From a virus: a DNA stretch of 64,000 bases. How positions within the stretch are numbered: position 1 is the first letter of the stretch; each line of letters starts with the position of its first letter. The DNA lies in IMG/VR virus record IMGVR_UViG_3300005337_000002. One strand, given 5' to 3'. This document shows positions 33,593 to 59,136 of the stretch, piece by piece. The notes under the pieces are model-generated. The model ran no database searches and was not told the origin of the DNA. It saw nothing but the letters and a program-made list of their open reading frames with translations. Position numbers and translations under genes: made by a program.

Positions 33593-34645
33593 ATGCGCAG
33601 AGTCCTGCTCCTCCTGCTCCTCCTGCTCCTCCTGAGTAGTCAGCTGGTGTCTGCCGCCTCCCTCACGATTGGCCCTGGGGACGCGCTCAGTGCCGCCGTG
33701 GCGCAGTTGCATCCGGGCGAGACGCTGACCCTGCTGGGCGGGACGTATACCCAGCCGCTGCGCTCGGGCGACGTGGTCTTCCCCAGCGGCACGTCCTGGC
33801 AGGCGCCGATTACCATTCAGGGGGCGCCCGGTGCCACCGTGGTCCTGACGCAGCCCGTCAATATCCAGGCCAATAGCGACGGGTCCTCGGTCCGCTATCT
33901 CATCCTCGCCAACCTGCACATGCCGACCTTTCGTGTGGGCGATCAGACGAGCTTCTTGCGGGTGCAGGACAGCGACATGACGGGGGATGCCAACCACGGC
34001 ATCACGATTACCTCCACGACCGATCATATCGAGATTCTCCGCACCCTCGTGCATGATGCGCAGGTGGGGAGCAATCCCGCCTATAGCGTCACGACGGCCA
34101 CCTATGGCTGCTACTGTAACGGGCAGCATATGCTGATCGAGGGCAACACGTTTCGCCAGAACAGCGGGTATGCGCTCCACCTCTATTTGAGTGGCAGCAC
34201 GGTCAATAATGCCATCGTGCGGCGCAACACGTTTGTGGGGAACGCCGCGGATGATGGCACCCGCAACCTCACGCTGGGGGTGGTCATTCTGGCCGGGAGC
34301 AACAATCTGTTCTGCGGCAATACGCTGACGGACAACCCCACGCTGCATGGCGGGCCGGCGGTCTCGGCGGAGTATGGCAGCGGCAACGTGATCGTCGGCA
34401 ATACCATCAGTGGGACGAATGGCCCGGCGATTGAACTGAACGACTCGGCGGTGGGGACGGTGGTGGCGGGCAATCAGCTCACCAATAATCAGGGCGGGAT
34501 CGTGGGGCCGGGGATGACGACGATGGTGACGACGACGACGGTGGACTGTGCGGCGCCGCTCGCGGCGCCCTCGCCCGTGCCGGTGGCGCAGAAGCCGCCT
34601 GCGCCCACGCACTTGCGGGTGCTAGCGATTCTCCCCTCACACTAG
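33593..34645 (+). CDS. Secreted right-handed beta-helix (pectin lyase-like) protein, paralogue of 42265-44148
   Basis: Signal peptide; shared GGTY, YGCYCNG, GYA.HLYLSG, DGTR. Confidence 0.85.
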   Translation: MRRVLLLLLLLLLLSSQLVSAASLTIGPGDALSAAVAQLHPGETLTLLGGTYTQPLRSGDVVFPSGTSWQAPITIQGAPGATVVLTQPVNIQANSDGSSVRYLILANLHMPTFRVGDQTSFLRVQDSDMTGDANHGITITSTTDHIEILRTLVHDAQVGSNPAYSVTTATYGCYCNGQHMLIEGNTFRQNSGYALHLYLSGSTVNNAIVRRNTFVGNAADDGTRNLTLGVVILAGSNNLFCGNTLTDNPTLHGGPAVSAEYGSGNVIVGNTISGTNGPAIELNDSAVGTVVAGNQLTNNQGGIVGPGMTTMVTTTTVDCAAPLAAPSPVPVAQKPPAPTHLRVLAILPSH

Positions 34646-37346: not shown

Positions 37347-38546
37347 CTAGTCTGTGTGCAACGCCCGCTGCATGCGCTCAGCTATCCTCTCGCTGTTGGC
37401 GGGATGGAGGAGCCGCTGCATCACCAACTGGGCCTCGATGGCACGTATGACGTGCGCGTGGTCCTGGGGCATAGGCGGCGGCGCTGTGTCACTGGACACG
37501 GTCGCGACAAGGCCTGCAGGCGGATCACTCACGGGGGTCAGCACAAACCCATGCCGCACCCCCTGGACCAGCCCCTCCCCCGCGATGAGCCCCTGGGCAT
37601 TGCGACTGAGCACCCGCTGGAGTTGCCAGCCGTCCGCATTGGTCACGCGGGCCTGGAGTGCGATGGGCTGGTCCTGCGCATCCCAGAGCGTGGCGACACG
37701 GACCGTGAGTCCCGGCTCCTCCCCCTCGGTCACACTGGCCCCGAGCACGTTGCCGTCGTCATCGAGCCCGTCGCCCTCGCTCGTCTCCAAGCCCTCCAGC
37801 GGCGTCAGGACGTGCTTGCCATCGCTGCGATAGATCGCGGCCTGGCTGACGGGGGCATGGTCCTGCACGACAATCTCCCCAGCCCGGTTATTGATGCCCC
37901 GCGCCTCACTCCCCGCGACGAGGTCAAAGATCGCGCCCGCGAAACTCCAGAAGGCGGCATGGAGCACCCCGGCCTCATCCGTCGCCGCACCCGCACTATA
38001 GCCCGCGTCATTGATGGCGGTGAGAAACGCGGATTGCTGGTCGGCCAGCAGGCGTAAGGTGCGGGGCTGTCCGTCTTCCCAGAGCGTCGGTTCCAGGTGA
38101 CTGCGGTCTGGCACTTCGGCATAGCCCGCCACGACGAGGCTCAGGTTACAACTGGTCGCCGCGCTAAAGAGATCGGGATCGCCGAGAGTGCCCTCATCGA
38201 TCAAGCCGCCCGGGCCGGTGAACGTACAGGCATGAGTGAAGAGCGAGAACGGCCCAGTGCCGCACAGACCCACCGTGGCGCCGTTACAGATGGCGGCGGC
38301 GATGGAGAACGTGCCACCGGGGAGGAAGCCCAGGGGCACGGGGACGGGGAAGAGGAGCGCGGCGATCTGGTTGGGGCCAAGGAGGGTGCCCGCCACGAGG
38401 GGCTGCAGCGGATCGACCCCGGCGACGAGCACCTCGCCCAGGTCGGTGAGGGTATACGCATCGGCGAGCGGGGCCGCTGGGGTGCGGGACGGGAAGAGCA
38501 GGACGAGGAGCAGGAGGGTCACAACAGTGCTGATGGCACGAGGCAT
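37347..38546 (-). CDS. Secreted HAF-repeat (beta-propeller-like) protein, probable moron
   Basis: Signal peptide; YTLTDLG, AIND.G, HA.FW, HGFVLTP. Confidence 0.75.
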   Translation of the reverse strand: MPRAISTVVTLLLLVLLFPSRTPAAPLADAYTLTDLGEVLVAGVDPLQPLVAGTLLGPNQIAALLFPVPVPLGFLPGGTFSIAAAICNGATVGLCGTGPFSLFTHACTFTGPGGLIDEGTLGDPDLFSAATSCNLSLVVAGYAEVPDRSHLEPTLWEDGQPRTLRLLADQQSAFLTAINDAGYSAGAATDEAGVLHAAFWSFAGAIFDLVAGSEARGINNRAGEIVVQDHAPVSQAAIYRSDGKHVLTPLEGLETSEGDGLDDDGNVLGASVTEGEEPGLTVRVATLWDAQDQPIALQARVTNADGWQLQRVLSRNAQGLIAGEGLVQGVRHGFVLTPVSDPPAGLVATVSSDTAPPPMPQDHAHVIRAIEAQLVMQRLLHPANSERIAERMQRALHTD

Positions 38547-40876: not shown

Positions 40877-41035
40877 TTAGAGACGCCCGGTGAGCAAGAG
40901 GACCACGAGGATTATCAGTACGATGCCCACAATCCCTGGCATGCCCCATCCCGTGCCGTGCCAACTCCCCCAGGGGGCCGTTGGGACACCTGCAAAGAGG
41001 ACGATGACTAATATAACTATTAGTAGTAACCACAT
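40877..41035 (-). CDS. DUF3309-like small membrane protein
   Basis: LLIVILV..L...P..PW......G..P..VG.VLII.VVLLLTGRL. Confidence 0.7.
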   Translation of the reverse strand: MWLLLIVILVIVLFAGVPTAPWGSWHGTGWGMPGIVGIVLIILVVLLLTGRL

Positions 41036-41046
41036 AGACACGTCTC

Positions 41047-41271
41047 CTAGAGTGACGTATGCGTGGGTGGTGCGGATGCCGGCGTCTCCGGCCAGGCCGC
41101 ATGCCCCGCATTCGCTGCAGCGACCGCCCCGCCGAGGAGTGCCGTGAGCCACGTCGCGGTGGCAAGCTTGGTCGTCGTGCCGGAGAGCTGCACCAGCGAG
41201 GTTGTCAGCATCCCGGCACACGCCACGATAAACGCCCGCAGACAGATGAGCCAAAAATGGACATCCGGCAT
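41047..41271 (-). CDS. Holin-like 2-TM protein
   Basis: Two hydrophobic helices; lysis position. Confidence 0.45.
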   Translation of the reverse strand: MPDVHFWLICLRAFIVACAGMLTTSLVQLSGTTTKLATATWLTALLGGAVAAANAGHAAWPETPASAPPTHTSL

Positions 41272-41273
41272 CG

Positions 41274-41417
41274 TTACCTCCCGAGCGGGATCGCCCGCAG
41301 CAGTTCGATGAGGACAAGGCAGAGCACGCAGAGCCAGATGGCCATGCCCCGGAGGATGTGGATAATGAGAAACGCGAGGGCCAGGACCGCGAGGACGAGA
41401 AACACGGTTAGGGGCAT
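41274..41417 (-). CDS. Small 2-TM membrane protein
   Basis: GGAGG RBS; hydrophobic 47 aa. Confidence 0.5.
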   Translation of the reverse strand: MPLTVFLVLAVLALAFLIIHILRGMAIWLCVLCLVLIELLRAIPLGR

Positions 41418-42031
41418 GGGGGTTCCTCCGTAGCGTGGACGTCGTGGACTGCGCCCAGCACCACAATGTCCGGACAGGTCGCAAAATCCTTGGGGGCGAT
41501 AAACCCACGCGGATCGTAGGGGATATCGAGGCCAACCTGGGCATAGAGCCGCTGCACAAACTCCGAACAAATGAGCCGCGTATTCGCATGGGGCGCGTGC
41601 GGCGGCATCCCGAGGACCTGCCCCATGATGCGCAAGGCAATGCCGGCAATCTCGCGCCCATCATACCGCGTGCCGAGCAGCGTCACGGCCTCCTGACTGA
41701 GGCGCTGCAGCAGGACGGCGTCGGTCGGAAAGCGCGTATGCCGGGCCACACAGACGATGCCCGGATAGGGCTGGCCGGTGTCGGCGTAATTGGTCACATA
41801 CTGCTCCATAGCCACCGCCCGCACGCCAATGGATTCGACCGATTCGAGCACGAGCACCCGCTGCAGCCCCTCCAGACGCCAGAGCAGGCCCACATGACTC
41901 CAGCGGGACTGCGTGGCGTGTTGAATGAGTTGGGACATCGGACTTGTGCCCTGACAGAGGAGGAGGTCGCCCGAGCGCAGGTCTTCCTGCCATCGCGTAT
42001 ACGGGGACGTCGGAAGTGATGATGGCTCCAT
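41408..42031 (-). CDS. Permuted papain-like NlpC/P60 (YiiX/YebB-like) amidase, candidate endolysin
   Basis: LRSGDLLL...S.WSHVG...G..YD...LICSEFV. Confidence 0.8.
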   Translation of the reverse strand: MEPSSLPTSPYTRWQEDLRSGDLLLCQGTSPMSQLIQHATQSRWSHVGLLWRLEGLQRVLVLESVESIGVRAVAMEQYVTNYADTGQPYPGIVCVARHTRFPTDAVLLQRLSQEAVTLLGTRYDGREIAGIALRIMGQVLGMPPHAPHANTRLICSEFVQRLYAQVGLDIPYDPRGFIAPKDFATCPDIVVLGAVHDVHATEEPPCP

Positions 42032-42050: not shown

Positions 42051-42251
42051 TCAGCGCAGTGCGCGACATTGGTCAATCGTGGCGCCGCCGGTCGCAATGA
42101 GGGCCGAGACCCCGATGAAGGGGCCATAGGAGCCACTCACCCAGAGGCAGGCGGTATCCCCGCGTTTGTTGAGCGTATCGGCCAGATGGTCGACGCTGGC
42201 GCAGCCGCCGCACAGCAGTCCCAGGAGGAGCGCGCTCCAGACCCAGCGCAT
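42051..42251 (-). CDS. Small lipoprotein
   Basis: Lipobox LCGG-C. Confidence 0.65.
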   Translation of the reverse strand: MRWVWSALLLGLLCGGCASVDHLADTLNKRGDTACLWVSGSYGPFIGVSALIATGGATIDQCRALR

Positions 42252-42264
42252 CGTACTCCCCTCC

Positions 42265-44148
42265 TCACCGCATGCTCACGCGGTGGCGGCGCACCGTGGC
42301 ACTCTGGCGGTAGTCCGTCAGAATCTCGGCGGCACTCCAGACGCGATTATCCAGACGAAAGTCATCGACGCTGCCGGGGTCATAGTACGTGCCGGATTCA
42401 TTCACCCAGCGGCCGACGTCAAAGACCGTCAGATCGACGGTCGGGGCGGTCGAGGACGGCGCCGACGCCACAAGCGCGCCGTTCGCATAGATCGCCCGCA
42501 CGCTACTGGTTGCCCCGCTGGAGACGAGCGCGAACCGCACCCATCGCCCGAGATAGGGTGTACAGTCCACGCTCACGCGCCCGACGGTATGCCAGTCGCC
42601 GTAGTCCCAGTAGCAGACATTGTCGCTGTACGGGAGATGCGCGCCAAACCGGTCCTGCACCGCGGCGCTATGCGCGCCAAAGGCCCCGGTGACGCCCCCG
42701 GCGGTCACTTTGCGCCACAGGAGCACGGTGACGGGCTGCCCCGCTGTCCACACCATCGTGGCAGTGGTCACGTACTGCGCCACGCCGTTCATCGTCACGG
42801 CGCCGGTCCCGACGCGCCCCGGTCCCCAGAGCGGACCCCCCGCGAGCGTGCCGGTATAGCCATTGCCCGTCGCATCGGCCACGGTCGTCCCCGTGCCCTC
42901 ATCGAATTTCCACCGCAGCGCTTGTGGGCCGGTCGTCACGACGCCGCTGCCATACTCTTCCGCCCCGAGGTCATAGGCCGCGCCCTGGGGCCGTGCGATC
43001 CCGCGCCGATCGGTCGGCACGGCGGCGAGCGTGACGCCCGCATCAATGGCCGGGCTGCCCGCCTGGAGGCGAAAGTCGCCGGCAGCCGCATTGACAAAGA
43101 GGGGATCGCCCGTGAGCAGATTATGATCCCGGATCGTGCCGGTGGCCCCGTCATCTTGAATGGTGTCCGCGTTCCCCGTCAGGATATTGTTCTGAATTTT
43201 GGTATTCGTATTGCCGACGTTGATTTCAATCGCCGCGCTCTGCGGGTTCTGGGTAATGGTATTGTTATAGACGCGATTATTATCCACCCCAAAGCCGCCG
43301 GTGCCCGGACTGATACTCACGACGGCTCCATTGCCAATGCAGAGATTATTCGAAAAGATATTGTTCGCGAGGAGATTATTCCCGCCATTCATAATGATGA
43401 CATTGAGCCCTTGCCCCCGCGTGCCGTCATTAAAGCAATTCTCGTGAAACAGGTTATTGGTGACGACGGCATTTTCCACCCCACCCCCGCTGAGATAGAG
43501 ATGGATCGCATAGCCATAGTTGTCATAAAACTCGTTGCCATCCATCGTCATATTCGTCCCGTTACAGTAGCAGCCATACTGGCCCGGAATGCCGTTTGGA
43601 TCGCCGACATAATTGAGATCGAGCCGCGCCCCGTGGATCTTATTGCCCACGAGGCGGACATGATCGGTATAGCGGGCGATGCCCACCGTCGCGAAATCGC
43701 CCCCCGTAAAGTTGCTGTTGCTGACGGTAATATGGTGGCTATTGATCGAGATTTCCAGATGGGGCGAGGTCAAGTTATCCAGCGTGAGATATTGCGGGAT
43801 GCTGGCATCAAAGTTGTCCTGGATATTGATCTGGTTGGGGATCACCACCGTTTCGCCGGGATACCCCGCGATGGTGATGCGCGTACTCTCATTCGTGCCG
43901 CTGGGGAGGCGAAAGCCCACGGGACTAAAGAGTTCATTATAGGTCCCACCCCGAATGAGCAGCGTATCGCCCGGTGTCAGGCACGCGACCCCAGCGGCAA
44001 TCGTGCGCCGGGGCGTGGTCAGTTGGGTGGCCGCCGCACAGCTATTGCCGGCGGCGACGGCCCCATCAACATAATAGATCGTGGCGTGGGCAGGCCCCCA
44101 CCAGAGACCGCAGAGGAGGACGACCAGGAGCATGCGAGGGTGTCTCAT
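42265..44148 (-). CDS. Secreted beta-helix plus LamG protein (depolymerase/adhesin-like)
   Basis: Signal peptide AHA; TIYYVD; beta-helix repeats; DFRLQAGSPAIDAG; WKFDEGTG...LamG. Confidence 0.85.
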   Translation of the reverse strand: MRHPRMLLVVLLCGLWWGPAHATIYYVDGAVAAGNSCAAATQLTTPRRTIAAGVACLTPGDTLLIRGGTYNELFSPVGFRLPSGTNESTRITIAGYPGETVVIPNQINIQDNFDASIPQYLTLDNLTSPHLEISINSHHITVSNSNFTGGDFATVGIARYTDHVRLVGNKIHGARLDLNYVGDPNGIPGQYGCYCNGTNMTMDGNEFYDNYGYAIHLYLSGGGVENAVVTNNLFHENCFNDGTRGQGLNVIIMNGGNNLLANNIFSNNLCIGNGAVVSISPGTGGFGVDNNRVYNNTITQNPQSAAIEINVGNTNTKIQNNILTGNADTIQDDGATGTIRDHNLLTGDPLFVNAAAGDFRLQAGSPAIDAGVTLAAVPTDRRGIARPQGAAYDLGAEEYGSGVVTTGPQALRWKFDEGTGTTVADATGNGYTGTLAGGPLWGPGRVGTGAVTMNGVAQYVTTATMVWTAGQPVTVLLWRKVTAGGVTGAFGAHSAAVQDRFGAHLPYSDNVCYWDYGDWHTVGRVSVDCTPYLGRWVRFALVSSGATSSVRAIYANGALVASAPSSTAPTVDLTVFDVGRWVNESGTYYDPGSVDDFRLDNRVWSAAEILTDYRQSATVRRHRVSMR

Positions 44149-45569
44149 TGGAGGACTCCCTTGATCTTCACCTGGACAAACTTGGCCGTGCCCCCGGCTG
44201 CCGTAATGTTGACGGCCAGATCGCACGGCGTACTACTACACGTGGCCCCCGTCCCGCTAAAAGGGTGCACCAGTGGACTGCCGTTGACCGTACACGCCGC
44301 CCAGATACCCGTGCCGCACGTACAGGCCCCCGTGAGAATCGAGGTACCCGTGATGTCCCCGGTCAGGATGGGGCGCACGGTGGGCGTGCCCGCGTCGGCC
44401 ATACAGGCGACCGTCGTGATTTTCCAGTCTTTTTCAAAGTCGTTCGGACAGGCGCGGGGCGAATCCTCATCATCGGCCAGCGGCGGGGCATCGACACTCA
44501 CCGAGCCGACGCTAATGACGCAGGGCTTGATCTTGTACTTGTCGGGGATCCCGATACTCCAGGCCTTCCAGCGCGTCGCGGTCGCATCATAGATGATCGC
44601 CAGCGTCTCGCCCGGGAAGAGGGTCAGGTCCCCCCCGAAGAGGAAGCGATTCACGGCCGAGGAGCTGGCACTCTGGTCTTTGAGGGTGAGGGCATTGGTC
44701 GTGCCCACGTTCTGGAGCGCAATGATATCACCGCCTGTCCCCGCGGTCAGGCCGGTGAGCAGTCGATCCGCTGCGCCTCCATTGATGCGACAGACGCCAG
44801 TGGTACACAAGGCGTAATCATTGGCATCGCCTGCCAGGGTCGCGGTCGTCGCGGTGCCGGTCACTGCGAGTTGCGGGGGCAGGTCCGCTTTGACCGGGGC
44901 GCGAAACGTCGGGGCTGCAGCACTGCCCGAGGCCGGTCCCGCATAATGGGTATTGGCCGTTTGCGTGGCTTTGACCCAGGCAATGGTGCCCGCGGTCGTG
45001 ATCGGCGAGCCGGTGACGGTATACTCGGTCGGCGGCGTGATCGTCACACTCGTGACGGTGCCGGTGCCTGCGCCACTGCCGGGGACATAGGCAATAATCT
45101 TGGTATCAATCAGGGCCAGACTGCCTGCCGTCGTCGCATTGTCGTCCATTTGCCCGATGACAATGCCGTTACTGGGGGCAGCGGCTTGCGCGTGGCAGTC
45201 CCCCGCCACCGTGACCGACGCGACGACATACTGGCCGCGCACGTTACTCGCGGTGGCGTCCATGCGGCAACTGGTCACGCCGCTCAGATTGAGCATGGCA
45301 TAGCCGGTCGTGGTCCCGTTGCGCGTGACCACATAGAGCGGGATATTCGTATCGCCCGTGCCGGCGATCACCGCCCCCGTCGAGGTGATCTTCGCGAGGG
45401 ACCAGAGGGTCGTTCCGGTGCTGGGGTCATTGAGCACGGCCTTGACGGTATTGGTGCCGCGCGACGCTTCCTGCGCATCGACGCCCGGGAGCAGCGTGGC
45501 GAGGGCGAGCATGAGCAGCAGGAGGCGCAGGGTCGGGGAGCGGAGCAGATGGGCGAGTCGTGCCAACAT
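44145..45569 (-). CDS. Secreted, Cys-rich tail-fibre-like protein
   Basis: Signal peptide VDA; GTVTSV and AGP.SG..AAPTFR fibre motifs; many Cys. Confidence 0.75.
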   Translation of the reverse strand: MLARLAHLLRSPTLRLLLLMLALATLLPGVDAQEASRGTNTVKAVLNDPSTGTTLWSLAKITSTGAVIAGTGDTNIPLYVVTRNGTTTGYAMLNLSGVTSCRMDATASNVRGQYVVASVTVAGDCHAQAAAPSNGIVIGQMDDNATTAGSLALIDTKIIAYVPGSGAGTGTVTSVTITPPTEYTVTGSPITTAGTIAWVKATQTANTHYAGPASGSAAAPTFRAPVKADLPPQLAVTGTATTATLAGDANDYALCTTGVCRINGGAADRLLTGLTAGTGGDIIALQNVGTTNALTLKDQSASSSAVNRFLFGGDLTLFPGETLAIIYDATATRWKAWSIGIPDKYKIKPCVISVGSVSVDAPPLADDEDSPRACPNDFEKDWKITTVACMADAGTPTVRPILTGDITGTSILTGACTCGTGIWAACTVNGSPLVHPFSGTGATCSSTPCDLAVNITAAGGTAKFVQVKIKGVLQ

Positions 45570-45607
45570 ACGTATCCTTTCGGCGGCGTCTAGACCGCGG
45601 TGACGTG

Positions 45608-46495
45608 TCAGTGCATAAACTGGAAAAACCCAGCGGTATTGCTGCCGCCCACATTGATGAGCGGGCCGCGATTGAGCAGCCCGGTATCGCCCTGGCGTCC
45701 GAGGCTATAGAGGGCGGCCACGTCGAGCGCGCTCAGCGCCCGCAGATAGAGCCGCGCGTCATCGAGCGCCCCGTCCCAGGTATTCGAACTGCCATCAAAG
45801 GACCCGAGGGCCGCGAGATTGGCGCCCGCGAGGAACGTATTCGCGCTGTCCATATCCGACGCGGTCCCTTCCTGCTTGCCATCGAGATAGAGCGTGACGA
45901 CCGTGCCATTCAGGACGAGCGCGCCATGATGCCAGCCGGTATCGAGCGCCGTTGCGCCGGTGAGCAGCGTGTTACTGTTTGATACATTGCGGTACCGCCC
46001 CTCCAGCATGCCGCCCGTGCCGCTCGTCTGCAGCGCCCAGCCGAGGGAGCCGGTCGAGCGCTGGAAGGAGAAGAGGCGCAGCTGGGCCGCCGCGAGGGCC
46101 GCCGTCGTCGGCTTGAGCCAGATGGTCGCCGTGAGGGTCGTCTGCGTGCTCGCGTAGAAGTCCGACGTGAGCCCGACATCGACGTAGGTCGTCACGCCAT
46201 CGAACCGGAGTTCGCCAAAGCCCCCGGTGCGCACGGTCGCCCCCCAGGTCGCGCCATTCGTCAACGTGCCGTGGTGGGTGCTCATGAGGTCATACCACTG
46301 GCGTCCGCCGTCGAGGCCCGGAATGGCCCGCCACATGCTCACGAGGCCCCAGGCGAGGGGATGCTCGCGCTGCACGGGGGCATGCGTACTGATGAGGCCC
46401 AGGCCCCCGACATGCGCAAAGGGCGAGAGTTGGGCCTGGCAGGGGAGGACGCTCGCGCAGAGGAGAGCGATGAGGAGCAACAGACGCAGGATCAT
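45608..46495 (-). CDS. Secreted LamG/ConA-like lectin domain protein
   Basis: Signal peptide; L.FDG...WHH.ALV.....LYLDG...G.LDD.RLY.RALS. Confidence 0.85.
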   Translation of the reverse strand: MILRLLLLIALLCASVLPCQAQLSPFAHVGGLGLISTHAPVQREHPLAWGLVSMWRAIPGLDGGRQWYDLMSTHHGTLTNGATWGATVRTGGFGELRFDGVTTYVDVGLTSDFYASTQTTLTATIWLKPTTAALAAAQLRLFSFQRSTGSLGWALQTSGTGGMLEGRYRNVSNSNTLLTGATALDTGWHHGALVLNGTVVTLYLDGKQEGTASDMDSANTFLAGANLAALGSFDGSSNTWDGALDDARLYLRALSALDVAALYSLGRQGDTGLLNRGPLINVGGSNTAGFFQFMH

Positions 46496-47004
46496 TGCGC
46501 AATGCCCTCGATAGTAACTGGCCTAATTTTAATAGTATTACCAGAGGCCGCCAACGTCTGTCCGGTGGAGTCGTTCTTTGCGACCGCCTTAAACAAGCCC
46601 CAGGGACAGAGAATGCGCCGGGTGACCCGCGTCCCTGTTTGCCCGGCGGTCACGGGGAGGACGACGTCGGGGGCCCGGCCCAGGGTGATCGAGGCGGTCG
46701 GCGTATCTTCGTAGTTCGTGCCGTCCGCCGCCATGAGGAACCAGACGACGACGGCCGTATTGGCGGTGGGATTGGCCCCGAAGGTAAAGACGCCCTCGAC
46801 ATCGCAGAGGACATAGCCGTCGCCCGCTTGGAGCGGCGTATTATTGAAGGCGGCACTGGCGGCGGTGAATCCGTTACTGGTTAGTGAGTTCAGTTGCGTC
46901 GTCAGGAGACTCGTCTGGCTCCCGAGCAGAAACTTGGTCACAATCGCGGCGTGGGCAAGACTTGCTATCCCAAGGATGAGCACAAGACTGAGCAGACGTC
47001 TCAT
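46492..47004 (-). CDS. Secreted phage structural-type beta protein
   Basis: Signal peptide AHA; LNSL...DGTNYED motif seen in phage late proteins. Confidence 0.65.
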   Translation of the reverse strand: MRRLLSLVLILGIASLAHAAIVTKFLLGSQTSLLTTQLNSLTSNGFTAASAAFNNTPLQAGDGYVLCDVEGVFTFGANPTANTAVVVWFLMAADGTNYEDTPTASITLGRAPDVVLPVTAGQTGTRVTRRILCPWGLFKAVAKNDSTGQTLAASGNTIKIRPVTIEGIAQ

Positions 47005-47543
47005 GTGGCGTCCCTCGCGGTAGAAATATCATCCAGCGTCAGCTTGCGCCCGCAGACCACCTCGGCCCGGGACCCCTGCCGCTTGACCATCGCAATGAGC
47101 GCCGTGCGGGTGGCACTGGGATTGGCAAAGATGCCGACAATCGGGGGACTGCCGCCTGCGCCGACGAGGATGGCGCGAATATTCGCTTTACTGAGATCCA
47201 CCGTCGTCGTGCCGAGAATGGTGTTCAGTTGCGCGAGTTGATGATCCGAGAGCGCCAGATACTCGGCGGGGTCGAGCACGGTGGCCTTCAGGTCGGCGAC
47301 GGCGACGGGGGCAGGATCGACCTGGTAGGTGGCACCGCTGCGCACCTGGTTCATGACGGTGAGGACATCGGCATCCTTGCCTGCGGCAAAGAGGTTTTGG
47401 AGACTGACCGACTGGCTGTCGGCGAGATTGGCCGGGTTCGTCTGCAATTCCGTTTTCAAATCCGACGGGGTGCAGACTGCCCCGGCGATGAGGGGACAGA
47501 GCATGAGGAGCAGGGCTGCTCCGAGGCGTGTTACGACAAGCAT
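47001..47543 (-). CDS. Secreted phage late protein
   Basis: Signal peptide AGA; LKTELQTNP...SRAEV. Confidence 0.65.
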   Translation of the reverse strand: MLVVTRLGAALLLMLCPLIAGAVCTPSDLKTELQTNPANLADSQSVSLQNLFAAGKDADVLTVMNQVRSGATYQVDPAPVAVADLKATVLDPAEYLALSDHQLAQLNTILGTTTVDLSKANIRAILVGAGGSPPIVGIFANPSATRTALIAMVKRQGSRAEVVCGRKLTLDDISTARDAT

Positions 47544-47571
47544 TGTGCGTACTCCTGTGCTATACTTAGCA

Positions 47572-47628
47572 GGCTTGGTTGCCTTGCTAGCGTAATCCTG
47601 TTTGGCCTTACCCAGACAGGTCCAAGCC
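47572..47628 (+). ncRNA. c4-like three-way-junction leader RNA
   Basis: ggcttgg/ccaagcc outer stem; loop ccttac complementary to gtaagg in the SD; extended -10 TGcTATACT. Confidence 0.55.
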
Positions 47629-47659
47629 ATCCATCCTTCTGAGCCTGTAAGGAGGCGGC

Positions 47660-48319
47660 ATGACTGCCCATAATTTCATTGATTTGACTGAACAACTCTT
47701 TGATCGATTGACCGTCTTGAGCCGTGCGGCCAATGGGAGTGATGGTCGGACACGTTGGATGTGTCAATGCAGCTGCGGTGCTCTGCGCGTTGTCGATGCG
47801 AAGGCTTTGCGCCGACGTGCAACCAAAAGCTGCGGATGTTTTAAGATTGAGGAGAATACGCAACGTAGTCGAACGCATGGCATGGCACACACTGCGGAAT
47901 ACTTTGTATGGAAAAACATGAAGGCACGATGCTTGAACCCGCGCAGCTCGCGTTATGCAGATTACGGTGGTCGCGGGATTACTATCTGTGCACGATGGCA
48001 AGACTCGTTCGTCAATTTTTATGAAGATATGGGGCCTCGCCCAGGGCCGAAATACACTATCGAGAGAGTGCGAAACTCGGAAGGGTATGCGCCAGACAAT
48101 TGCATCTGGGCAACATTGTCTGTGCAAGCACGTAATAAACGCACGAGCCTTTCTTTCACCTTGAATGATATTACGCAATCGCTGCTGGAGTGGGCGCAAA
48201 GCATCGGAATGAACTATCACACGTTGTATTATCGCTTGCAGTGTGGACTGTCTCTTGAAGAGGCTATGGCTCGGCCATTGCAGATACATAAAAATAATAT
48301 ACATAAACATATAGAATAA
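47660..48319 (+). CDS. HNH-type homing endonuclease inserted antisense in the late operon
   Basis: W.C.CSCG...SCGC; W..MK.RC...YGGRGI.IC.RW; TIER..N..GY.PDNC.WAT...QARN. Confidence 0.88.
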   Translation: MTAHNFIDLTEQLFDRLTVLSRAANGSDGRTRWMCQCSCGALRVVDAKALRRRATKSCGCFKIEENTQRSRTHGMAHTAEYFVWKNMKARCLNPRSSRYADYGGRGITICARWQDSFVNFYEDMGPRPGPKYTIERVRNSEGYAPDNCIWATLSVQARNKRTSLSFTLNDITQSLLEWAQSIGMNYHTLYYRLQCGLSLEEAMARPLQIHKNNIHKHIE

Positions 48320-48326
48320 TCCTAAA

Positions 48327-50693
48327 CTAATTAGTAGCATACGCTTGCCATTTGGAGAGCACTGTGGAATAGACCACGCCAATTGCTGTCCAGGCGGATG
48401 TTCCGCTTGGGCATACCGTGGGCAGGCCGACGTTCGGGCTCGCAATAAAAATACTATTCCAAGCAAACGTCTGTTGGGACGTGCAGAGGAACCGCAGAAA
48501 CAGGCGTTGGCCATTGACGGGCGTGCCTGAGGGGGCGGCCACCGTGAGCGTCCCACTGCCAGCGGTCATCTGCATCTCGCAGTCGTCGGACGAGTCTCCC
48601 GCACAGGTGTACGTGGTGCTGCTTGTCAAGGTCGTGACTCTGGGCGTGATCCTCTTCGCAGACAGCGTCTGCGTATCCGTATCTCCGACGACCGCCCCGC
48701 TCGGTGCCGCGACGACGTTGAGCGTGCCATCCCCGCCCGACGTCTTCACCAGGCCGTTACTTGTCAGATTCGCGAGTTTGGCAATCGTGGGGGTGGTGAG
48801 CGTCGGACTCGTGGCCTTGACGTAGTTGCCCGTCCCAGTCACCGCAACGCCCTGAATGACCGTTGCGGACGTCCACTCTGCCGCTTGCCCGCTGGTCGGC
48901 GTGCCCGTGTTCGACACATTGCCCCCGCCTGCCGGCGTCTGCCACGTCCCATCGCCGCGCCAGAAGGTGGACGATGACGCGGACGTGCCGCTATTCAGAT
49001 TCGCCACCGGCAGATTCCCCGTGACCCCGGTACTCAGGGGCAACCCGGTCGCATTGGTCAGGACCGCCGCACTCGGCGTGCCCAGCGCGGGCGTGACGAG
49101 GGTGGGACTCGTCGCCTTGACGTAGTTGCCGGTGCCTGTCACGGCCACCCCTTGGACGGCCGTCGCGCTGACCCATTCCGTCGACTGTCCCGCGACAGGC
49201 GTGCCCGAGATCGTAATGGTCCCCCCGCCCCCGCAGGACGTGACGGTGCACAGCGCCCCATCGCTATCGGGCAGCGTGTTGAAGTGATGGGCGCTCAAAT
49301 TGCCCGCCATGAGCGTGCTGGTCCAGCCATGCGGGTCCGTCAGTTCCACGAGGCCGCTGCCCTGGCCGTGCGTCATTTCCTGGATCGTGCCGACATGGTT
49401 GCCCGGATCATAGAGAAAGCGGCCGGTGTCCACGTCCCACGTCGTGCCTTCGCCGTGAAACGCCACGTCCTTGTAGGCCCCCGTGGCCAGCGCCGCCCCG
49501 CCCCCGCCGCCCCCCGCCAGCGTGGCAATCAGTTGCGAGTTGAAAATGATCTGCCAGGTCGAGGTGGTCGAGTCGTACTCAAAGAGCAGGAGATCATCTT
49601 TATTCAGCCCGGTCGTCGCGGCCGGCAAGTCCCAGCCGGCATTCTCGCTATACTGCGGTTGCCAGGTGAGCGGCTGAGGCGTGGCACTGCGCAGGCGCAA
49701 GCGATACCACTGCCCGGCCCGCGCCGTGCCCAACGGGTTGAGGATGAGCGCGCCCGTCGTCATGGCCGTCACGCGCTCCAGGTCATACAGCACGGGATTG
49801 GGCTGAATCGTGCCGCTGGTGGTGCTGGGATCGGCCAGCGTATTGACGCGCGGCGGGACAAACGTCTGCTCCAGCGTCTGCGGGCCATCCGTCCCGGCCA
49901 GATTGCCCGCGGGCAACGGCACGGTGGTGACGGCGGCGAGCCCCCCGCTGGTCGTGGCGTAGAGGACGCCCGAGGGCAACACCCCGAGATTCACGCCGAC
50001 CGGGAACTGGCTATTACTTTGCGCGAGGAGCGGCTTGGCGACGGATTGGGCGATGGCTGGCACATCGCAGATGAGGACGCCCGTGGCCGTCACGCCTTTG
50101 GCATAGGTCCCTGCGAGTTGACAGGTATTGCCCACATAGGCCGCAAAAAGCCCCGTGCCATCCGCGGCCTGGAGCGTGCCAGCCCCGCCGAGCGGGAGGC
50201 GCTGCCAGGTGCCCGCCACGGTCGACGTCGTGATCGGCACTTGATTGGTGGCCGTGGCAGTGCTCATCGTCACATTGCCGAGCGAGCCACTGCCGCCCGT
50301 GCCCCCGCTCAGCCCCTCGACCTGGAACGTGGTACCGTCGTCGCAGGCTTCGACCCGCTGGCCGATGCCGATGTCATTGGCGACGAGCGGGGTCGCCACG
50401 CCCGCCACGCGCTTCATCAGGGCCTTCGCCCCGCGCCCGTTGACGTTGAGGGTCGCCGGGCCGGTGTTGGCGGCATGCGCGAAGAACGCATAGCAGGCGC
50501 CGACATGGTAGGACAGAATCGCTGGGGTGAGGGTGATCGCATACGTATTCGTTGCGCCCGTTGAGGTCGTGGCGGTATTAAACCATCCATAGATCGTGCG
50601 CGGTCCGGCAATGGGATTCTGACTATAGCTCGCTGTCACCGCGCACAGGAGGAGCCCTATACTGAGGAGGATGCCTCTTAGGCTCTGTCGCAT
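48327..50693 (-). CDS. Tail-fibre-like protein with signal peptide
   Basis: G/T-rich fibre motifs ([25 protein letters not shown]), internal duplications, N-terminal signal peptide. Confidence 0.8.
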
Positions 50694-52198
50694 GGCGGTG
50701 CCTCCGTGCGTCCGAGCGTCGCTTCCAGTGCTTCGACACGCGCATGCAGTTCTTTGAGGCCGTTCATGAGCGTATACACGAGCGTCCCGCTCCCTTCATT
50801 CGTCAGAATATCTTCGACCGCGCCGCCTGGCGTGAGAGCACGCCGTGCTCTTCCCACCATCGTCGGGGCCACCTGTTGCAGTGCTTGTGCAATCAACCCG
50901 ACATGCTCTTTGCCGTCCTTGGGCATGCCGCCGAGCCCGTTATAGGCAAAGACGACGGGCTCTAGGCGCAGGAGGAGGTCTAAGCCTTCCAGATACGGAC
51001 GTCGGACCTCTTTCAAACGGGCGTCAGAAAATATCGTCCAAGCACTCGTTCCAGGTTTACTAGCACTATCGGTACTCAACTCCAGCTGGTGGGAGGGCGA
51101 CGTCACGCCCAGCCCCAACTGTCCTGCCGTGGTCAGGGTGGCGAGGATGGCGCTCAGGGCATTGCGCAGATACACATGCCCGCCTGCGCCCATTTGCAGC
51201 GAGAGATCCCCCGCCCGGGAATAGACGCTGGTGGCCGTCTGATTGACCACGCCCCCGTCGCGAATCGTAAAGTCCGTACCGCTAAAGTCCGCCACACTGC
51301 CGAGCACGAGGCGCCCGCTGGTGGGATCGCTAAAGGTGGCGACGACATCATAGGTCGTGGGATGGACCGTGAGCGTGTTCGGGGCCAGCGCCGTGCGCGG
51401 CGTACTCGCATCCCACACGCCCCAGAGCAGTGCCCGGGTGCCCAGGCCATGCGTGCTCCCGGCCACGGTCACGGTCATCTGGCTCGTGAAACTCGCGGCA
51501 TATTGCGGGTCCGATTTCGTCAACACCAGATACCCCGTCATGGGATCGCTAAAGGTGACGACGACGTCAAACGTGCTCGGATGCACCGTGATACTATCGG
51601 GGGCAAAGACCGCACTGCCGAGAATCTGGCCCGCCGGTTGCGTATTGTCATAGAGGCGCCAGAGGAGGTCGGCCGTCGCAAAGCCATGCGCGCTCCCGAG
51701 CACGGTGACCGTGGTGGCGGCCGTGAAGTCCCGAATGTAGGGCGCCGCCCCACTGAGGACCAGACTGCCACTTAGGGGGTCCGCAAACTGCGCCAGGACG
51801 TCATACGTACTCTGATCCACCGTGAGGGCCGCCGGCTCCACGGCGGCGGCAGGCACGGCATCGGTATAGAGTTGCGCCAGGAGTCCCCGTGTGCCGAGCC
51901 GATGGGTCGTGCCGCCGACGTACACGCTAATACGATTGACAAAGTCGATGAGACTTGCCGCACTGCCAATGCCGGGGAGAAACTGGTTCAAGCGGGCGGC
52001 GACGCTGCCGAGGCTCCCCTGCGGTTGCGCGCCGAGACAGGTCTCGATGGAGAGGATCGCCGCTAGTATATCATTGACTAATTCAGAGTCGATGCGACTA
52101 TTAGAATCAGGCGCAGCAGGAGTACCATTGACATACGTTTGTGCGGTGTCAATCCCTGCTGAGTAACTGGTCCCGAAACCCGCCCCCAATTGGCTCAC
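50678..52198 (-). CDS. Tail fibre with three ~75-aa repeats and a C-terminal peptidase S74 chaperone
   Basis: SDARLKE...L.PV.F.YNG...VGLIAQ...KEL..RVE.LE. Confidence 0.88.
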
Positions 52199-52395
52199 AT
52201 TAGCGGTCCTCACGGGTATCAGGGTGATCGTGCATATATTGCCGCACCGCTTGGCGGATGGCCTGCTGCGTGAGGACGGGCAAACTCAGTTGTGTCCGGA
52301 GCGCGTTGATCTGCGTGAGCAGTACGTCAAAGACCATGCGCTCACGTGGGGCTAGGACGGTTGTTGGATCAACGCGATGGTCGAGTCTCGGCATC

Positions 52396-52824
52396 CTAGG
52401 TCGCCTCCACGGTGATCGGTGCCGCCCACGCCGTTGCCATGGTGTGCAGGGCAATCACAAACAGCGCCGGCACATCGGACGTGAGGACCAGCGTCGGATC
52501 CTCCGTCGTCAGGGCCAGCGGTGCGCCATTGACGACCAGCGTACATGCTTCAAACGGGTCAATGGTCACGGTACAGGTGGCCACGGCATCGGCGACAAAG
52601 GGGTTGGGCGTCGCCGTGATCGTGAGTTCTTCCTTGGCACTGACCGCGCCCTCGACAATCGCGTACTGCTCCTGCCACACGCGCGGATCATGCGCGTCGT
52701 CGGTCAGCAGATAGCCATAGGTCGGGTCGTCGGGCACGATTTGGGCTTGTGTCAGGCCGAGACTGCTGCCCTGAATCACGGCATCGATGAACCCCGTATC
52801 CAGGCGATATTTCAGGAGGGCCAT
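52396..52824 (-). CDS. Tail-associated hypothetical protein
   Basis: Between J and the fibre; RBS. Confidence 0.55.
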   Translation of the reverse strand: MALLKYRLDTGFIDAVIQGSSLGLTQAQIVPDDPTYGYLLTDDAHDPRVWQEQYAIVEGAVSAKEELTITATPNPFVADAVATCTVTIDPFEACTLVVNGAPLALTTEDPTLVLTSDVPALFVIALHTMATAWAAPITVEAT

Positions 52825-52828
52825 GTCA

Positions 52829-55800
52829 TCACCTCTGCAGCCGCAACGCGATAAAGCTGACATCCGACACACTGAGGCCCCCCGAGCCCAGCGTCTGGTT
52901 CAGCGTCAGGTAAAAGCTCTTCCCACTGAGGGCGGAGGGCACCTGATAGAAGGCGTTCAGGGCGATACTGGTGGCGGTGCCGGCATCGGACTGGGCCGTA
53001 CTGTTCAGGATGTTGCCGCTGAGATTATTTTCCCGAATGCGCACGGTCATCGTCTGCCCGACGCCGCTACTGCCGATGCCCTGGGCCAGAAACAGCACGA
53101 CATCGCCCGGATTGAGCAGCGTGAAGGTCAGGCTCGCGACGACAGTTTCCGTCCCGCTACTCGAAATGATCGAGGCCGAGCTATAGAGGAGCGATTCCGA
53201 GACGGCGGCCAGCCCGATCTTGGGCGTGGTAATCGCGTACTCATCGACCTTGGGGGTCGTGACGGCGAGGGTCCCGATGCCGTGACTCGTGGCCCCGCTG
53301 TTGAAGTCCCACATGAGTTGGCCATCCCAACTCCAGATTTGCATCCCGTAGTCGATATTGGTCGCGCCGATCTTGCCGAGATAGACCCGTGCCGCGGGCG
53401 TATTCTGATTATCAAAGATCGTTATTAAATGGTTCGGGCCGTCGAGCGTAATGGCATCCCCGCCGACCCCGATGCTATAGACCGCCTGCAGGGCCCCGGC
53501 CGTGATTTTGGGGGCACTCAAGGTGAGAATTTTGGCATCCTCAATCAGCGCATTGGCAATCTGCGCTCCGACTGTAATGACCGCAAACTCCGTCTGGAGA
53601 TGGGCGGCCTCGATGCTCCCGGCCCGAATATGGCGCGCGACGACGGCCGCATCGCTAATGCCGGCCGTCTGCGCCCCATCGGTAAAATTCCACATGAGCA
53701 CGCCGTTCGCATCAAAGATCTGCATGCCGTAGGCCGTATTGAGCGTCCCCAGCTTCCCCAGGTAGACGCGGGGCACCGGCACATTCTGGCTATCGAAGAT
53801 GGTGATGAGATTATTCACCCCATCGAGCACGATATTGTTGACGCCGAGGCGCACCAAGGCTTGAATGGTCCCCGCCGTAATCTTCGTGGCAATCAGACTG
53901 CTGATAAACGTGCTGTCGAGCTGGCCGGCCGTCCCGGCGACGCCCGCAATCGCGGACGCGGGCTGAAAGGCCGCCGAGCCATTTCCCGACGTATCGACCG
54001 CGCGGAGCCAGTAATAGCGGGTGTCGTTCGGCCCGAGCCCGTCATGAATAAAATTACTCTCCCCGGTGCCAATGCGGGTCGCGCTGGCGCGGTTGTTCAC
54101 GGGCGCCGACCAGATCTCACTATAGGCATAGTCCCCGTCCGGCGGCGGCGTCCAGAGCAGCGCAATCGAGCGAATACTGCCCACGGCCAGCAGGTTCGTC
54201 GGGGCCGCAGGCGGCGTCGTATCCTTGGCGGAGATGATGGACACGTCGGCACTATAGCCGGAGACATTGTGGAATTTGTCAAACGTGAGGAGGCGCACCA
54301 TGACGGGCGTATTGCCGGGCACCGGAATATGAATGAGGTGCTGCCGCCGCTCCGGATTGTAGACGGTGGGGCTCGTGCTCGTATTGAGATAGACATGCAC
54401 CTCATAGCCGGCCACATCGCTTTCCATCGCCAGGTCCCAACTTGCCTCGACCCAACTCATCGTCGTGCCATCGGAACTCAGGTCCACGCCTGTCGTGAGC
54501 GCGAGCCCGGTCGGGTCGGCGGGCGGCGTGCTATCAAAGGAATCCGCCGTGATCCCGGCAGGCACAAAGCTGGCCGTATGCGTGGGAATGCCCGGCCCAA
54601 AACTATCGTAGGGCAAGATATACGTGTAATACGTCGCGCCGACCTGGAGCCCGCTCACAAAGATTTTGCTAAAGGCTTTCGCTTCCGCCACCGAAAAGGC
54701 ACTGAGATTGTCATAGATGGCAATCGGGGGATCCATGAGGTCGAGGTGAATCTCATAATGGTCAAAGTCGCGCGGTTGCACAAACTGCGAAAAATCAATA
54801 ATGACAAAGAGAAATGGCACGATTTCGGGGATCATGTCGCCCATGTCGGGCGGCGGATTATTCGCCTTGAGGATCGCCGGATCGAGGGAGATGCGATTGG
54901 TGTTGGTGCGAGCCCAGACGAAAAACCACATATCCCGGCGCGCCCCGCCCATCCCGGCCCGCGCCTGATCTTCGGCATTTTGCTCCAGCGTATAGGTCCA
55001 CTGAATCGCGACGCCCGGGGAGCCCGCCAGCACCGTGGTGCGCCGCATGAGGTATTGCTGCCCCGGCGCCCAGACCTCGACAATATAGTCCTGCACAAAA
55101 TAGGTTTGCGTAAAGAGCGGGCTATCGGCGACCGGGAGCCATTCGATATGGACATCACGCCCCTCAAAGTCCGTCACCCCCACCGCCTGGCCTTTGAGCC
55201 GCAACTGTTGCACCGTGCCCGGAAAAAAGTCGGGGGTCGTCGGCCCGGCGACGTGGATCATGGCTTCGCGCGCCCCGGTATTATTCGGCGTGCCGCCCTG
55301 GGAGATCGGCACGACGCGGTACACATAGGTCGTGCCGGTGAGCACGGTATAGTCATCGTAGTCGAGGACATGGCCCCGCAACTGGATGAGGGGAATAAAA
55401 TTGACGTTCGCATCGCTCGGGTCTTGGATCGCGCCAAAGTTGATGATGCCCGCTTGCGCGACGCCGGCCCCACTACTTTCGAGGACGGCCCGCCGCAGGA
55501 TGAGTGCCCCACCATACGGGCCAAAGCCCGCCGAGAGGGCCGCCACATCCCACGAGAGGTTGACCACGCGCAGACTCGCCCCGCTGGCTTGAATCCGCGT
55601 CACTTCGGTGAGGATGAGCGAGGTAATGGGCGGGGCGGGGCCGGCTGGGTTAAAGAGATTCGAGATGACGGGGAGACTCGTGGCCGTCGCCTCGTCATAG
55701 ATCGAGGGATTGTGGATGATCCCCTGGATATGGACCGTGGTATCGGATTTCCGCTGGAGGGCCGTGACGCGAAACACCTTCACGGCGGTGTCCACGGGCG

Positions 55801-58222: not shown

Positions 58223-58608
58223 GTGAGCGGCCTCCAGCGGGCGACTTGGAGGAGGCGCGGGCGCCAATGCCGACAGCGCTCCAGACTGACGCCGCCCGTG
58301 TGTTCGCGGGCATGCACAAACAGGCCGCCGTCCAGCATGACGCCGACATGCCGCGCAAAGGGCAGCGTCTCGACCTTGGCGAGGATGTAGAGATCCCAGG
58401 GGCGCAGGAGCGGGAGCGGATCCGTCGCGGTGGTGTGCCACCACACTTCGACAAACTCCTCCGCGGCCGTCAGTTGATCCGTCGCGAGGTCAATGCCAAA
58501 GCCGTCCTTGTAGAGCAGGCGCACCAGATCCCAGCAGTCCGCGTGGGCGTAGGGCAGGCCCAGGTAGCGGTCGGCAATCGTGCGGGGATCGGGGATGGTC
58601 GTCAGCAT
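58219..58608 (-). CDS. NlpC/P60 tail tip protein (gpK-like)
   Basis: YLGLPY..ADCW.LV...HVGV.....FVHA. Confidence 0.85.
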   Translation of the reverse strand: MLTTIPDPRTIADRYLGLPYAHADCWDLVRLLYKDGFGIDLATDQLTAAEEFVEVWWHTTATDPLPLLRPWDLYILAKVETLPFARHVGVMLDGGLFVHAREHTGGVSLERCRHWRPRLLQVARWRPLT

Positions 58609-58632: not shown

Positions 58633-59136
58633 TTAACCATGCCTAGGTAAATTAGTAAAACCTGAAGTACTATTATACCTACGCTTAGGAACAAGTGTCC
58701 CGAGCGTATAGCCCTCGCAGACGAGATCAAATGTTGCCGTGAGGAAATCGGTTTCCACACTATCCACTTGCAAGATGGCGCCTGCGCCAAACGGGGTCTC
58801 GTTGGGCTGTTGGACGTCAATCTGCCACAGCGTCACCTGCCAGTTCGGGTCCACGCCCCAGTAGTTTTCGAGGAGTGATTGTATGGCTTGATCCACGTTT
58901 GCGGCCGTCACGCGGATATGGACGAGGGCGTCGGATGTCGGTTCCTCTAGTATATCGAGGTCCATAGGGAAGGCGGTAAAGACGAAGCCGTGGAAGGTCA
59001 CGTCCTGGTCGTAATTGACGATGCGGTACGGCGTGCCCGCCCCAGGAATGTCCACCTGCATCGCGGCGGTGATGACGTGATCGCTGGCGACACGGGCGTA
59101 TTCACGGGCGAGATTGGCGCTATAGATGCGCGGCAT
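58633..59136 (-). CDS. Minor tail protein (gpL/DUF1833-like)
   Basis: RIVN..QDVTF.G..F.AFP...NVD; position. Confidence 0.75.
   Translation of the reverse strand: MPRIYSANLAREYARVASDHVITAAMQVDIPGAGTPYRIVNYDQDVTFHGFVFTAFPMDLDILEEPTSDALVHIRVTAANVDQAIQSLLENYWGVDPNWQVTLWQIDVQQPNETPFGAGAILQVDSVETDFLTATFDLVCEGYTLGTLVPKRRYNSTSGFTNLPRHG

Follow-up and report, generated by a model that had tools for sequence, protein, structure and literature searches.

Predicted Sec-type leaders on a conserved set of fibre, lectin and beta-helix proteins encoded behind the tail fibre of an uncultured soil phage

Genes at the locus

We analyzed IMG/VR record IMGVR_UViG_3300005337_000002, a window of 64,000 nucleotides (nt; the whole stretch of DNA considered here) from an uncultured soil phage. 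On the minus strand, the right half of the window holds a tail operon of the lambda type, in which the gene for a signal-less S74 tail fibre lies immediately ahead of a set of genes, here called A to G, whose products begin with predicted Sec-type leaders. A sequence-only reading of this DNA had pointed to six late genes behind the S74 fibre with leaders of the basic-hydrophobic-AxA type, and this observation was borne out: the six starts that it named (50693, 47543, 47004, 46495, 45569 and 44148) are true minus-strand starts of open reading frames (ORFs), they are preceded by Shine-Dalgarno (SD)-like motifs, and the leaders are conserved in homologues. The pattern is real, statistically solid and conserved. 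The S74 fibre and the genes that follow it, with lengths in amino acids (aa), are:

50678–52213, minus strand: S74 tail fibre, 511 aa, with a C-terminal intramolecular chaperone (Peptidase_S74, 3.6e-10; PHROG tail fibre families)
48327–50693, minus strand: A, 788 aa, predicted Sec leader and fibre domains
47001–47543, minus strand: B, 180 aa, predicted Sec leader
46492–47004, minus strand: C, 170 aa, predicted Sec leader
45608–46495, minus strand: D, 295 aa, predicted Sec leader and LamG/concanavalin-A-like lectin domain
44145–45569, minus strand: E, 474 aa, predicted Sec leader, then jellyroll base, fibre and tip
42265–44148, minus strand: F, 627 aa, predicted Sec leader, beta-helix and LamG-type domain
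42051–42251, minus strand: G, 66 aa, small predicted exported protein that closes the module; leader, possible lipoprotein

Leaders and start sites

The leaders of A to F combine one to three basic residues with a hydrophobic stretch of ~10-18 uncharged residues, followed by small residues at positions -3/-1. With a slash at the predicted cleavage site, they end in TASYS/QNP (A), AGA/VCT (B), AHA/AIV (C), CQA/QLS (D), VDA/QEA (E) and AHA/TIY (F), and by heuristic and by reading of the sequences 6/6 proteins have the n-region, h-region and -3/-1 residues of a signal peptidase I substrate. Leaders were called with a crude heuristic of our own making, which was positive for 3/103 upstream phage genes and for none of the distal tail proteins (0/8) of Cellulophaga phage phi18:1. 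The absence of leaders from these phi18:1 proteins indicates that the trait is not forced by the host and that the heuristic does not fire indiscriminately.

The start sites themselves are well placed. A purine-rich SD-like motif lies 5-12 nt ahead of each start from A to F, and the overlap with the stop of the gene before is 4 nt at C, D and F, while the S74 gene and A share 16 nt. If these starts were passed over, the next in frame would be codon 93 in A, codon 45 in E and codon 77 in F, and initiation there would remove domain sequence that is conserved in homologues, which favours the leader-containing starts. True starts downstream of the leaders, which the sequence-only reading had named as grounds for giving it up, are contradicted by these data, and we rejected mis-called starts because of the SD motifs, the stop-start overlaps and the unusable downstream starts.

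Mis-called starts belong to a wider explanation in which the leaders are not export signals, the other forms of it being uncleaved inner-membrane anchors and chance hydrophobic N-termini. The calls are heuristic, and the uncharged stretch of B, at ~17-18 residues, could anchor a protein in a membrane. The h-regions of ~10-14 residues followed by AXA-type sites are nevertheless what cleaved signals usually show, dozens of orthologues keep the property despite sequence drift, paired cysteines (Cys) point to an oxidising compartment, and leaders are enriched behind the S74 fibre at p = 1e-21 (below). With the start-site evidence added, we consider this explanation very improbable.

The small protein G begins with the leader MRWVWSALLLGLLCGG/C, and its GC/ASV motif is conserved. 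An orthologue with 53% identity occupies the same position in metagenome contig L086. Against the lipobox pattern [LVI][ASTVI][GAS]C, the site of G is atypical at -3/-2, reading LLCGG/C in the window and LLEG/C in the L086 orthologue, with the Cys kept. The lipoprotein proposed to follow the six genes has a leader and a conserved Cys, and with its atypical lipobox G may be processed by signal peptidase II or by signal peptidase I.

Glutamine (Gln) was the commonest predicted +1 residue among 76 leader-bearing proteins from the window and loci L081-L142, and [AGSC]Q at the end of the h-region was present in 41/76 of these proteins (54%) versus 18% of control windows. A preference for +1 Gln (the Q-rule) has been published only for Bacteroidetes (PMC5837995). 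The +1 Gln predicts pyroglutamate N-termini and is a possible clue to the host.

Conservation and a boundary at the S74 fibre

To place the genes among relatives, 31 viral loci were gathered through the J protein, the central fibre of the tail operon, and the nine with enough downstream sequence were analyzed. Gene order was the same in 9/9: J, a small protein, a signal-less S74 fibre, then 4-8 leader-bearing genes. By heuristic, 32/39 ORFs after the S74 fibre were exported compared with 3/103 before it (Fisher p = 1e-21; nine J relatives), and 5/7 of the heuristic misses after the fibre show leaders by eye. The nine loci are related to one another and the count therefore overstates independence, yet the boundary is still unmistakable. 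The S74 fibre orthologues in 13 relatives begin MAQLGAG and lack a leader, as does the fibre of the window, in agreement with the earlier description of this fibre as signal-less.

Export character is kept in homologues as their sequences diverge. E has 13 full-length homologues at 40-93% identity, and 11/11 with an intact N-terminus carry a leader, divergent in sequence and almost always ending in A/Q or G/Q; the two others are 5'-truncated gene calls, and in one case a leader can be read in the DNA of the corresponding locus, L086. Within the E family, identity is 36% in the leader versus 46-51% in the body, and the same conservation of character with drift in sequence extends over dozens of orthologues. 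A-, C-, D- and F-type orthologues are likewise leader-bearing in L081, L082/G002, L083/G003, L086 and L091. By gene, leader-bearing orthologues were found for C in L086, L124, L132, L137, L141 and L142 and for D in at least 12 loci; leader-bearing orthologues and paralogues of F occur across L081-L091 and L133-L142, and B has a single weak homologue, in L133.

As a unit, the module recurs with leaders in three IMG/VR records (L081/G001, L082/G002 and L083/G003) and three metagenome contigs (L085, L086 and L091). The common order is an A-type fibre, small proteins, a LamG protein, E and 1-3 F-type beta-helix proteins, with G added in L086. A is itself modular: in some relatives its N-domain is encoded immediately behind the fibre gene as a separate exported protein of 157 aa, with the C-domain forming part of a different exported protein. 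We interpret the six genes, with G, as a conserved and portable module for host recognition whose products are exported and which is shared by a large group of uncultured phages.

Contig L085 (Ga0207674_10014519, rhizosphere) has 85-100% protein identity to D, E, F, the downstream gene H and the next four genes, indicating that the same phage was present in an independent sample.

Cysteine pairing

The mature proteins contain 10 (A), 2 (B), 2 (C), 0 (D), 12 (E) and 8 (F) Cys, an even number in 6/6. The earlier statement that the bodies hold many Cys applies to A, E and F, not to B and C with two each or to D with none. Among relatives, Cys density was 1.38 per 100 aa in mature leader-bearing proteins versus 0.73 in co-oriented signal-less proteins (Mann-Whitney p = 2e-6), and the count was even in 29/32 mature leader-bearing proteins. 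In the E alignment, 12 Cys columns form six pairs (101/125, 255/260, 350/374, 389/418, 416/426 and 444/449), and in 14/14 sequences both members of each pair are jointly present or jointly absent. Such pairing is what structural disulfides would leave, pointing to an oxidising compartment, and we infer disulfide bonds from it.

The conserved leaders, the even and co-varying Cys and the sharp boundary at the S74 fibre all uphold the proposal of export followed by oxidative folding in the periplasm. Judged from these sequence features, export of A to F is highly likely, and these host-recognition proteins very probably mature in the periplasm and not in the cytoplasm.

Domain composition of the exported proteins

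The sequence-only reading had described the bodies behind the leaders as fibre, LamG and beta-helix modules. This description holds for A, D, E and F, while B and C are without a family match; A, B, C and E matched nothing in Pfam or PHROGs, and neither did the N-domain of A. Searches with tblastn against 50,697 GenBank phages gave no match for E or F and only short repeat segments for A, and single-protein viral scans with E and C gave no match.

Behind its leader, A has a fibre domain of ~85 aa, a linker rich in Gly, a pair of Stf-type fibre repeats and, at the C-terminus, a domain of ~130 aa. The repeats match fibre genes in 595 viral stretches, leaders being present in only 5/79 of those inspected. 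One homologue found in the analysis bears the name of a lambda Stf repeat-2 protein. The N-domain (residues 25-135, window 50289-50621, minus strand; ~85 aa, with the motif ...ANTGxATLNVNGxGAK...YDG) belongs to a family with 8749 representatives at E <= 0.001 among 1.84 billion clustered proteins. It is often internal and tandem, in 2-12 copies, and is a common internal repeat rather than an anchor confined to N-termini. About three quarters of the top 150 members are signal-less and ~35 are leader-bearing (27 by heuristic, ~8 by eye); many of the signal-less members begin with N-termini that we take to be typical of phage fibres.

D is a LamG/concanavalin-A-like lectin domain protein by family match (Laminin_G_3, 2.6e-20; 73.5 bits against a cut-off of 27.6). 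The model of C has a predicted local distance difference test (pLDDT) score of 57, and its best fold matches, to carbohydrate-binding modules and TNF-like proteins, reach Z ~5, no better than a generic beta-sandwich; C is a probable beta-sandwich on this model. The model of E (pLDDT 78) contains a jellyroll base, a fibre or stalk, a middle domain and a Cys-rich beta-sandwich tip. Its base resembles phage cement and decoration proteins and the base of the phi29 head fibre at the fold level only. E also matches phage fibre proteins in a viral structure library, and three E homologues touch Phage_depo_C. The ESM Atlas yielded only weak viral and 'cement protein' leads.

F matches Beta_helix (5.7e-8) and, on its C-terminal half, PHROG 18503, and it has homologues with PF13229 and PF13385. 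By these matches it is predicted to be a right-handed beta-helix of the depolymerase or tailspike type joined to a LamG-type C-terminal half.

The module is not an ordinary moron

The sequence-only reading allowed that the proteins might be absent from virions and expressed only in lysogens as ordinary morons. As far as the sequence goes, this does not hold. The module genes have a GC content of 0.61-0.65, similar to that of their neighbours, and are coupled to late tail genes through stop-start overlaps; promoter-like and terminator-like sites in the module occur at the shuffled expectation. The module is also carried by G003 (L114-L116), a complete genome of 54,145 bp with terminal repeats and no tyrosine integrase, and its retention there indicates that it is not a lysogen-only trait. 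The moron reading was rejected on these four grounds. The genes ahead of the module in G003 encode a P22-type portal, scaffold, coat, Hc3 hub protein and DNA-ejection proteins, and the module stands where one would look for a tailspike. The direct terminal repeats of G003 are at least 96 bp long and consist of tandem 20-nt units (AATGGAGAGGCCAAAGTCAC).

Two further candidates were considered and set aside. A mirror copy of a signal-less virion protein was rejected because in G002 the A-like C-domain is also found on a leader-bearing protein of 2097 aa; there was no paralogy between A to F and J or the S74 fibre. Dependence on a mating system was rejected because no candidate was seen among the ORFs of G003, ten of whose proteins were family-scanned.

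Comparison with known systems

Textbook assembly of tailed phages is wholly cytoplasmic. The closest cultured analogue that we found is Cellulophaga phage phi10:1 (KC821618), a marine siphovirus in which gp091-gp094 each have a canonical leader ending before Gln. All four are annotated as 'structural protein' with experimental tandem mass spectrometry (MS/MS) proteomics in the GenBank record; the leader of the pectate lyase gp095 is weaker, and its entry lacks the MS/MS annotation. As in the window, the leader-bearing genes are co-oriented, close the tail module and precede genes for small membrane proteins. Among the BFVD fold hits of E, at rank 45, is a phi10:1 structural protein of 317 aa, which is as long as gp094; the match is weak. 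The two sets differ in that there is no detectable sequence similarity to A to F, the host is a member of the Bacteroidota, GC is low and each protein has 0-2 Cys. The phi10:1 record is silent on export signals, and our literature searches, which did not take in the text of the original phi10:1 paper, returned no discussion of such signals on these proteins.

In architecture, E and A match the mosaic adhesive trimer (MAT) fibres of Bdellovibrio bacteriovorus, of which S74 and non-S74 versions exist (PMC10769870). The comparison is one of architecture, and MAT genes are chromosomal genes of a predatory bacterium that serve its own surface, unlike the phage late genes behind a tail fibre described here. 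Signal-less phage fibres and tailspikes use the same parts as the module, namely Stf repeats, the ~85-aa fibre domain, beta-helices and LamG or jellyroll tips. Lambda Stf, P22-type tailspikes and S74 fibres differ by having a particle-binding N-terminus and folding in the cytoplasm, whereas the module proteins have a secretion signal and paired Cys.

Other phage proteins, late or early, also use the host Sec pathway and wait or act in the envelope. T5 Llp and Cor are exported exclusion proteins whose genes adjoin receptor-binding genes. Exported lysis proteins include Sec- and SAR (signal-arrest-release)-type endolysins (fOg44 Lys44, P1 Lyz) and spanins (PMC6116005). These are single lysis or exclusion proteins, in contrast to a fibre, lectin and beta-helix set of 6-9 genes. 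Porphyromonas gingivalis phages carry genes annotated without function whose Q-rule leaders expose Gln, and these have been read as modifiers of the host surface (PMC10367356); they share the +1 Gln leaders with the module and differ in having no tie to a fibre module and in host phylum and GC. A survey of diversity-generating retroelements (DGRs) counted a lack of signal peptides in favour of an origin from phages (PMC6199706), and a paper on Tunturi acidobacterial phages does not mention signal peptides. Our literature searches returned no description of Sec-exported tail fibres or of tail operons with a module of leader-bearing fibre genes.

Fate of the exported proteins

We propose that late in infection the exported proteins would cross the inner membrane, where signal peptidase I would remove the leader, often leaving an N-terminal Gln. 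In the periplasm the proteins would oxidise and oligomerise while heads and tails are built in the cytoplasm, and the two pools would mix only once the downstream amidase and small membrane proteins, a putative endolysin and holin, break the envelope. Fibre-type members, A and E at least, would then dock on finished particles as accessory fibres, and the members with beta-helix or LamG domains, whether particle-bound or free, would bind surface polysaccharide or cut it. Docking is suggested by bodies of the virion-fibre type, by the position in the tail operon and by phi10:1, whose MS/MS annotation favours it as that of an analogue and not a demonstrated relative.

Taken as a whole, this account of an exported module, with post-lysis docking of the fibre-type members as the likelier fate, is our best explanation, and we give it an even chance of being right. 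That at least some of the exported proteins join the particle after lysis is close to an even prospect, and that they act only as free or envelope factors is possible, with the balance of probability against it. Tentatively, the idea extends to tailed phages of several morphotypes and habitats, which may use a two-compartment assembly in which Sec-exported, disulfide-bonded adhesins dock at lysis.

Several observations weigh against this account. The leaders are identified by a sequence heuristic, and we know of no way for the particle of a tailed phage to take up proteins from the periplasm. J and the S74 fibre constitute a complete signal-less adsorption set, and the module is therefore not obviously needed on the particle. 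It occurs in a lambda-like siphovirus and in a P22-like podovirus without a morphotype-specific attachment domain, which favours free factors. The beta-helix of F is 33-46% identical to hundreds of 'parallel beta-helix repeat proteins' of ~420 aa, which are probably bacterial, the one organism label being a metagenome-assembled genome (MAG) of the Acidobacteriota. Lastly, the help given by phi10:1 is a GenBank annotation of an analogue with at most a weak fold link to E, in which co-purification may have played a part.

An alternative is that the proteins are exported and never reach the particle, acting instead as free or envelope factors that bind, mask or cut the phage's own polysaccharide receptor. 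Such factors could shield progeny from debris, bring about superinfection exclusion or digest matrix for the spread of progeny, and G would be a small receptor-blocking lipoprotein. Besides the existing adsorption set and the movement of the module between morphotypes with no anchor domain, this explanation draws on the resemblance of the F beta-helix and of its paralogue at 33593-34645 to beta-helix proteins taken as secreted bacterial enzymes, and on the Phage_depo_C contacts of the three E homologues. It also has established precedents in genes for exported proteins that block or modify a receptor and that adjoin receptor-binding genes: llp of T5, cor of T1, phi80 and N15, and gtr of P22. 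Signal peptides are present on 5% of prophage carbohydrate-active enzymes (CAZymes; PMC13507307), which points the same way. A long trimeric fibre architecture is nonetheless hard to explain for soluble periplasmic proteins, and surface receptors are out of reach from the periplasm without a further secretion step, for which there is no C-terminal sorting signal. The phi10:1 analogues are annotated as virion proteins, and 6-9 genes would be a large investment for exclusion. We regard a purely free or envelope role as possible, if doubtful.

A different destination would be the surface of the infected or lysogenic cell, where the proteins would work as MAT-like adhesins that make host cells stick to one another or aid contact with recipients of a mating channel. 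The succession of signal peptide, beta-rich domain, phage-like fibre and adhesive tip is the MAT architecture (PMC10769870), and the leaders on ~35/150 of the best A N-domain members are compatible with such a role. Yet no outer-membrane anchor or C-terminal sorting signal is visible in the sequences of A to F, no promoter of their own was seen, and the genes are coupled to late tail genes. The 54-kb podovirus-like G003 carries the module with no large mating-type ORF seen, ten of its proteins having been family-scanned. We consider surface adhesins of this kind unlikely, and return to post-lysis docking as the preferred fate of the fibre-type members.

Whichever fate applies, a whole class of receptor-recognition proteins appears to be routed through host secretion in soil siphovirus-like and podovirus-like genomes, mirrored in a cultured marine phage. 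If docking is true, it would be an unrecognised post-lysis assembly step by an undescribed route that lets adhesins use extracellular-type chemistry, and the need to consider cleaved, oxidised fibres would extend to predictors of receptor-binding proteins, to host-range engineering and to virion proteomics. If the proteins are free, phages would, ahead of lysis, secrete a large set of proteins that remodel the glycans of the host surface, with bearing on superinfection, biofilm matrix turnover and soil carbon flow. Either fate is testable in culture with Cellulophaga phage phi10:1.

Host leads

The contigs, with a GC content of 0.55-0.64, derive from metagenomes of soil, rhizosphere and peat. 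Leads to the host conflict: a J homologue is labelled as a Nitrospiraceae MAG, an F homologue as an Acidobacteriota MAG, and the leaders resemble the Q-rule type of Bacteroidetes. When the GTDB genome collection was scanned with the E alignment and with the J alignment, no relative turned up.

Neighbouring genes

Around the module, the tail operon and the left half of the window contain the following features:

60717–63998, minus strand: tape-measure protein with SLT domain, no leader
58633–59136, minus strand: minor tail protein
52829–58444, minus strand: J-type central fibre ORF, no leader
52396–52872, minus strand: small conserved protein between J and the S74 fibre
47660–48319, plus strand: free-standing HNH homing endonuclease (PHROG 374, 5.4e-67)
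41408–42031, minus strand: H, YiiX/C92 permuted papain-like amidase, no leader (Pfam Peptidase_C92, 2.3e-7)
33593–34645, plus strand: stand-alone exported beta-helix protein with leader MRRVLLLLLLLLLLSSQLVSA/ (Beta_helix, 5.6e-16; NosD, 6.3e-10)

The HNH endonuclease gene sits antisense between A and B and lies outside the module. Its insertion breaks a tightly packed operon, and B to G may consequently need a promoter of their own. Downstream of H are three small two-helix membrane proteins (40877-41570), and together with H they are probably a lysis cassette of an unusual type, comprising a putative endolysin and holin. A spanin pair was not recognisable in the H cassette region (40877-42031), and the small membrane proteins are followed by a coiled-coil protein of 262 aa with a C-terminal membrane helix.

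In the left half of the window there are genes of an early type, for a recombinase, a methylase, a NADAR protein and a Gp3-like protein. The exported beta-helix protein at 33593-34645, which is outside the module, is a paralogue of the F beta-helix with 38% identity over 289 residues. A second leader-bearing protein outside the module, 37347-38546 on the minus strand (399 aa), belongs to no known family and is conserved in L085.

The J ORF appears over-extended at its 5' end, since the database copy of J has 1797 aa, which places the start probably at ~58222. The first ~250 residues of J resemble tail assembly protein I (PHROG 32), suggesting that I and J are fused.

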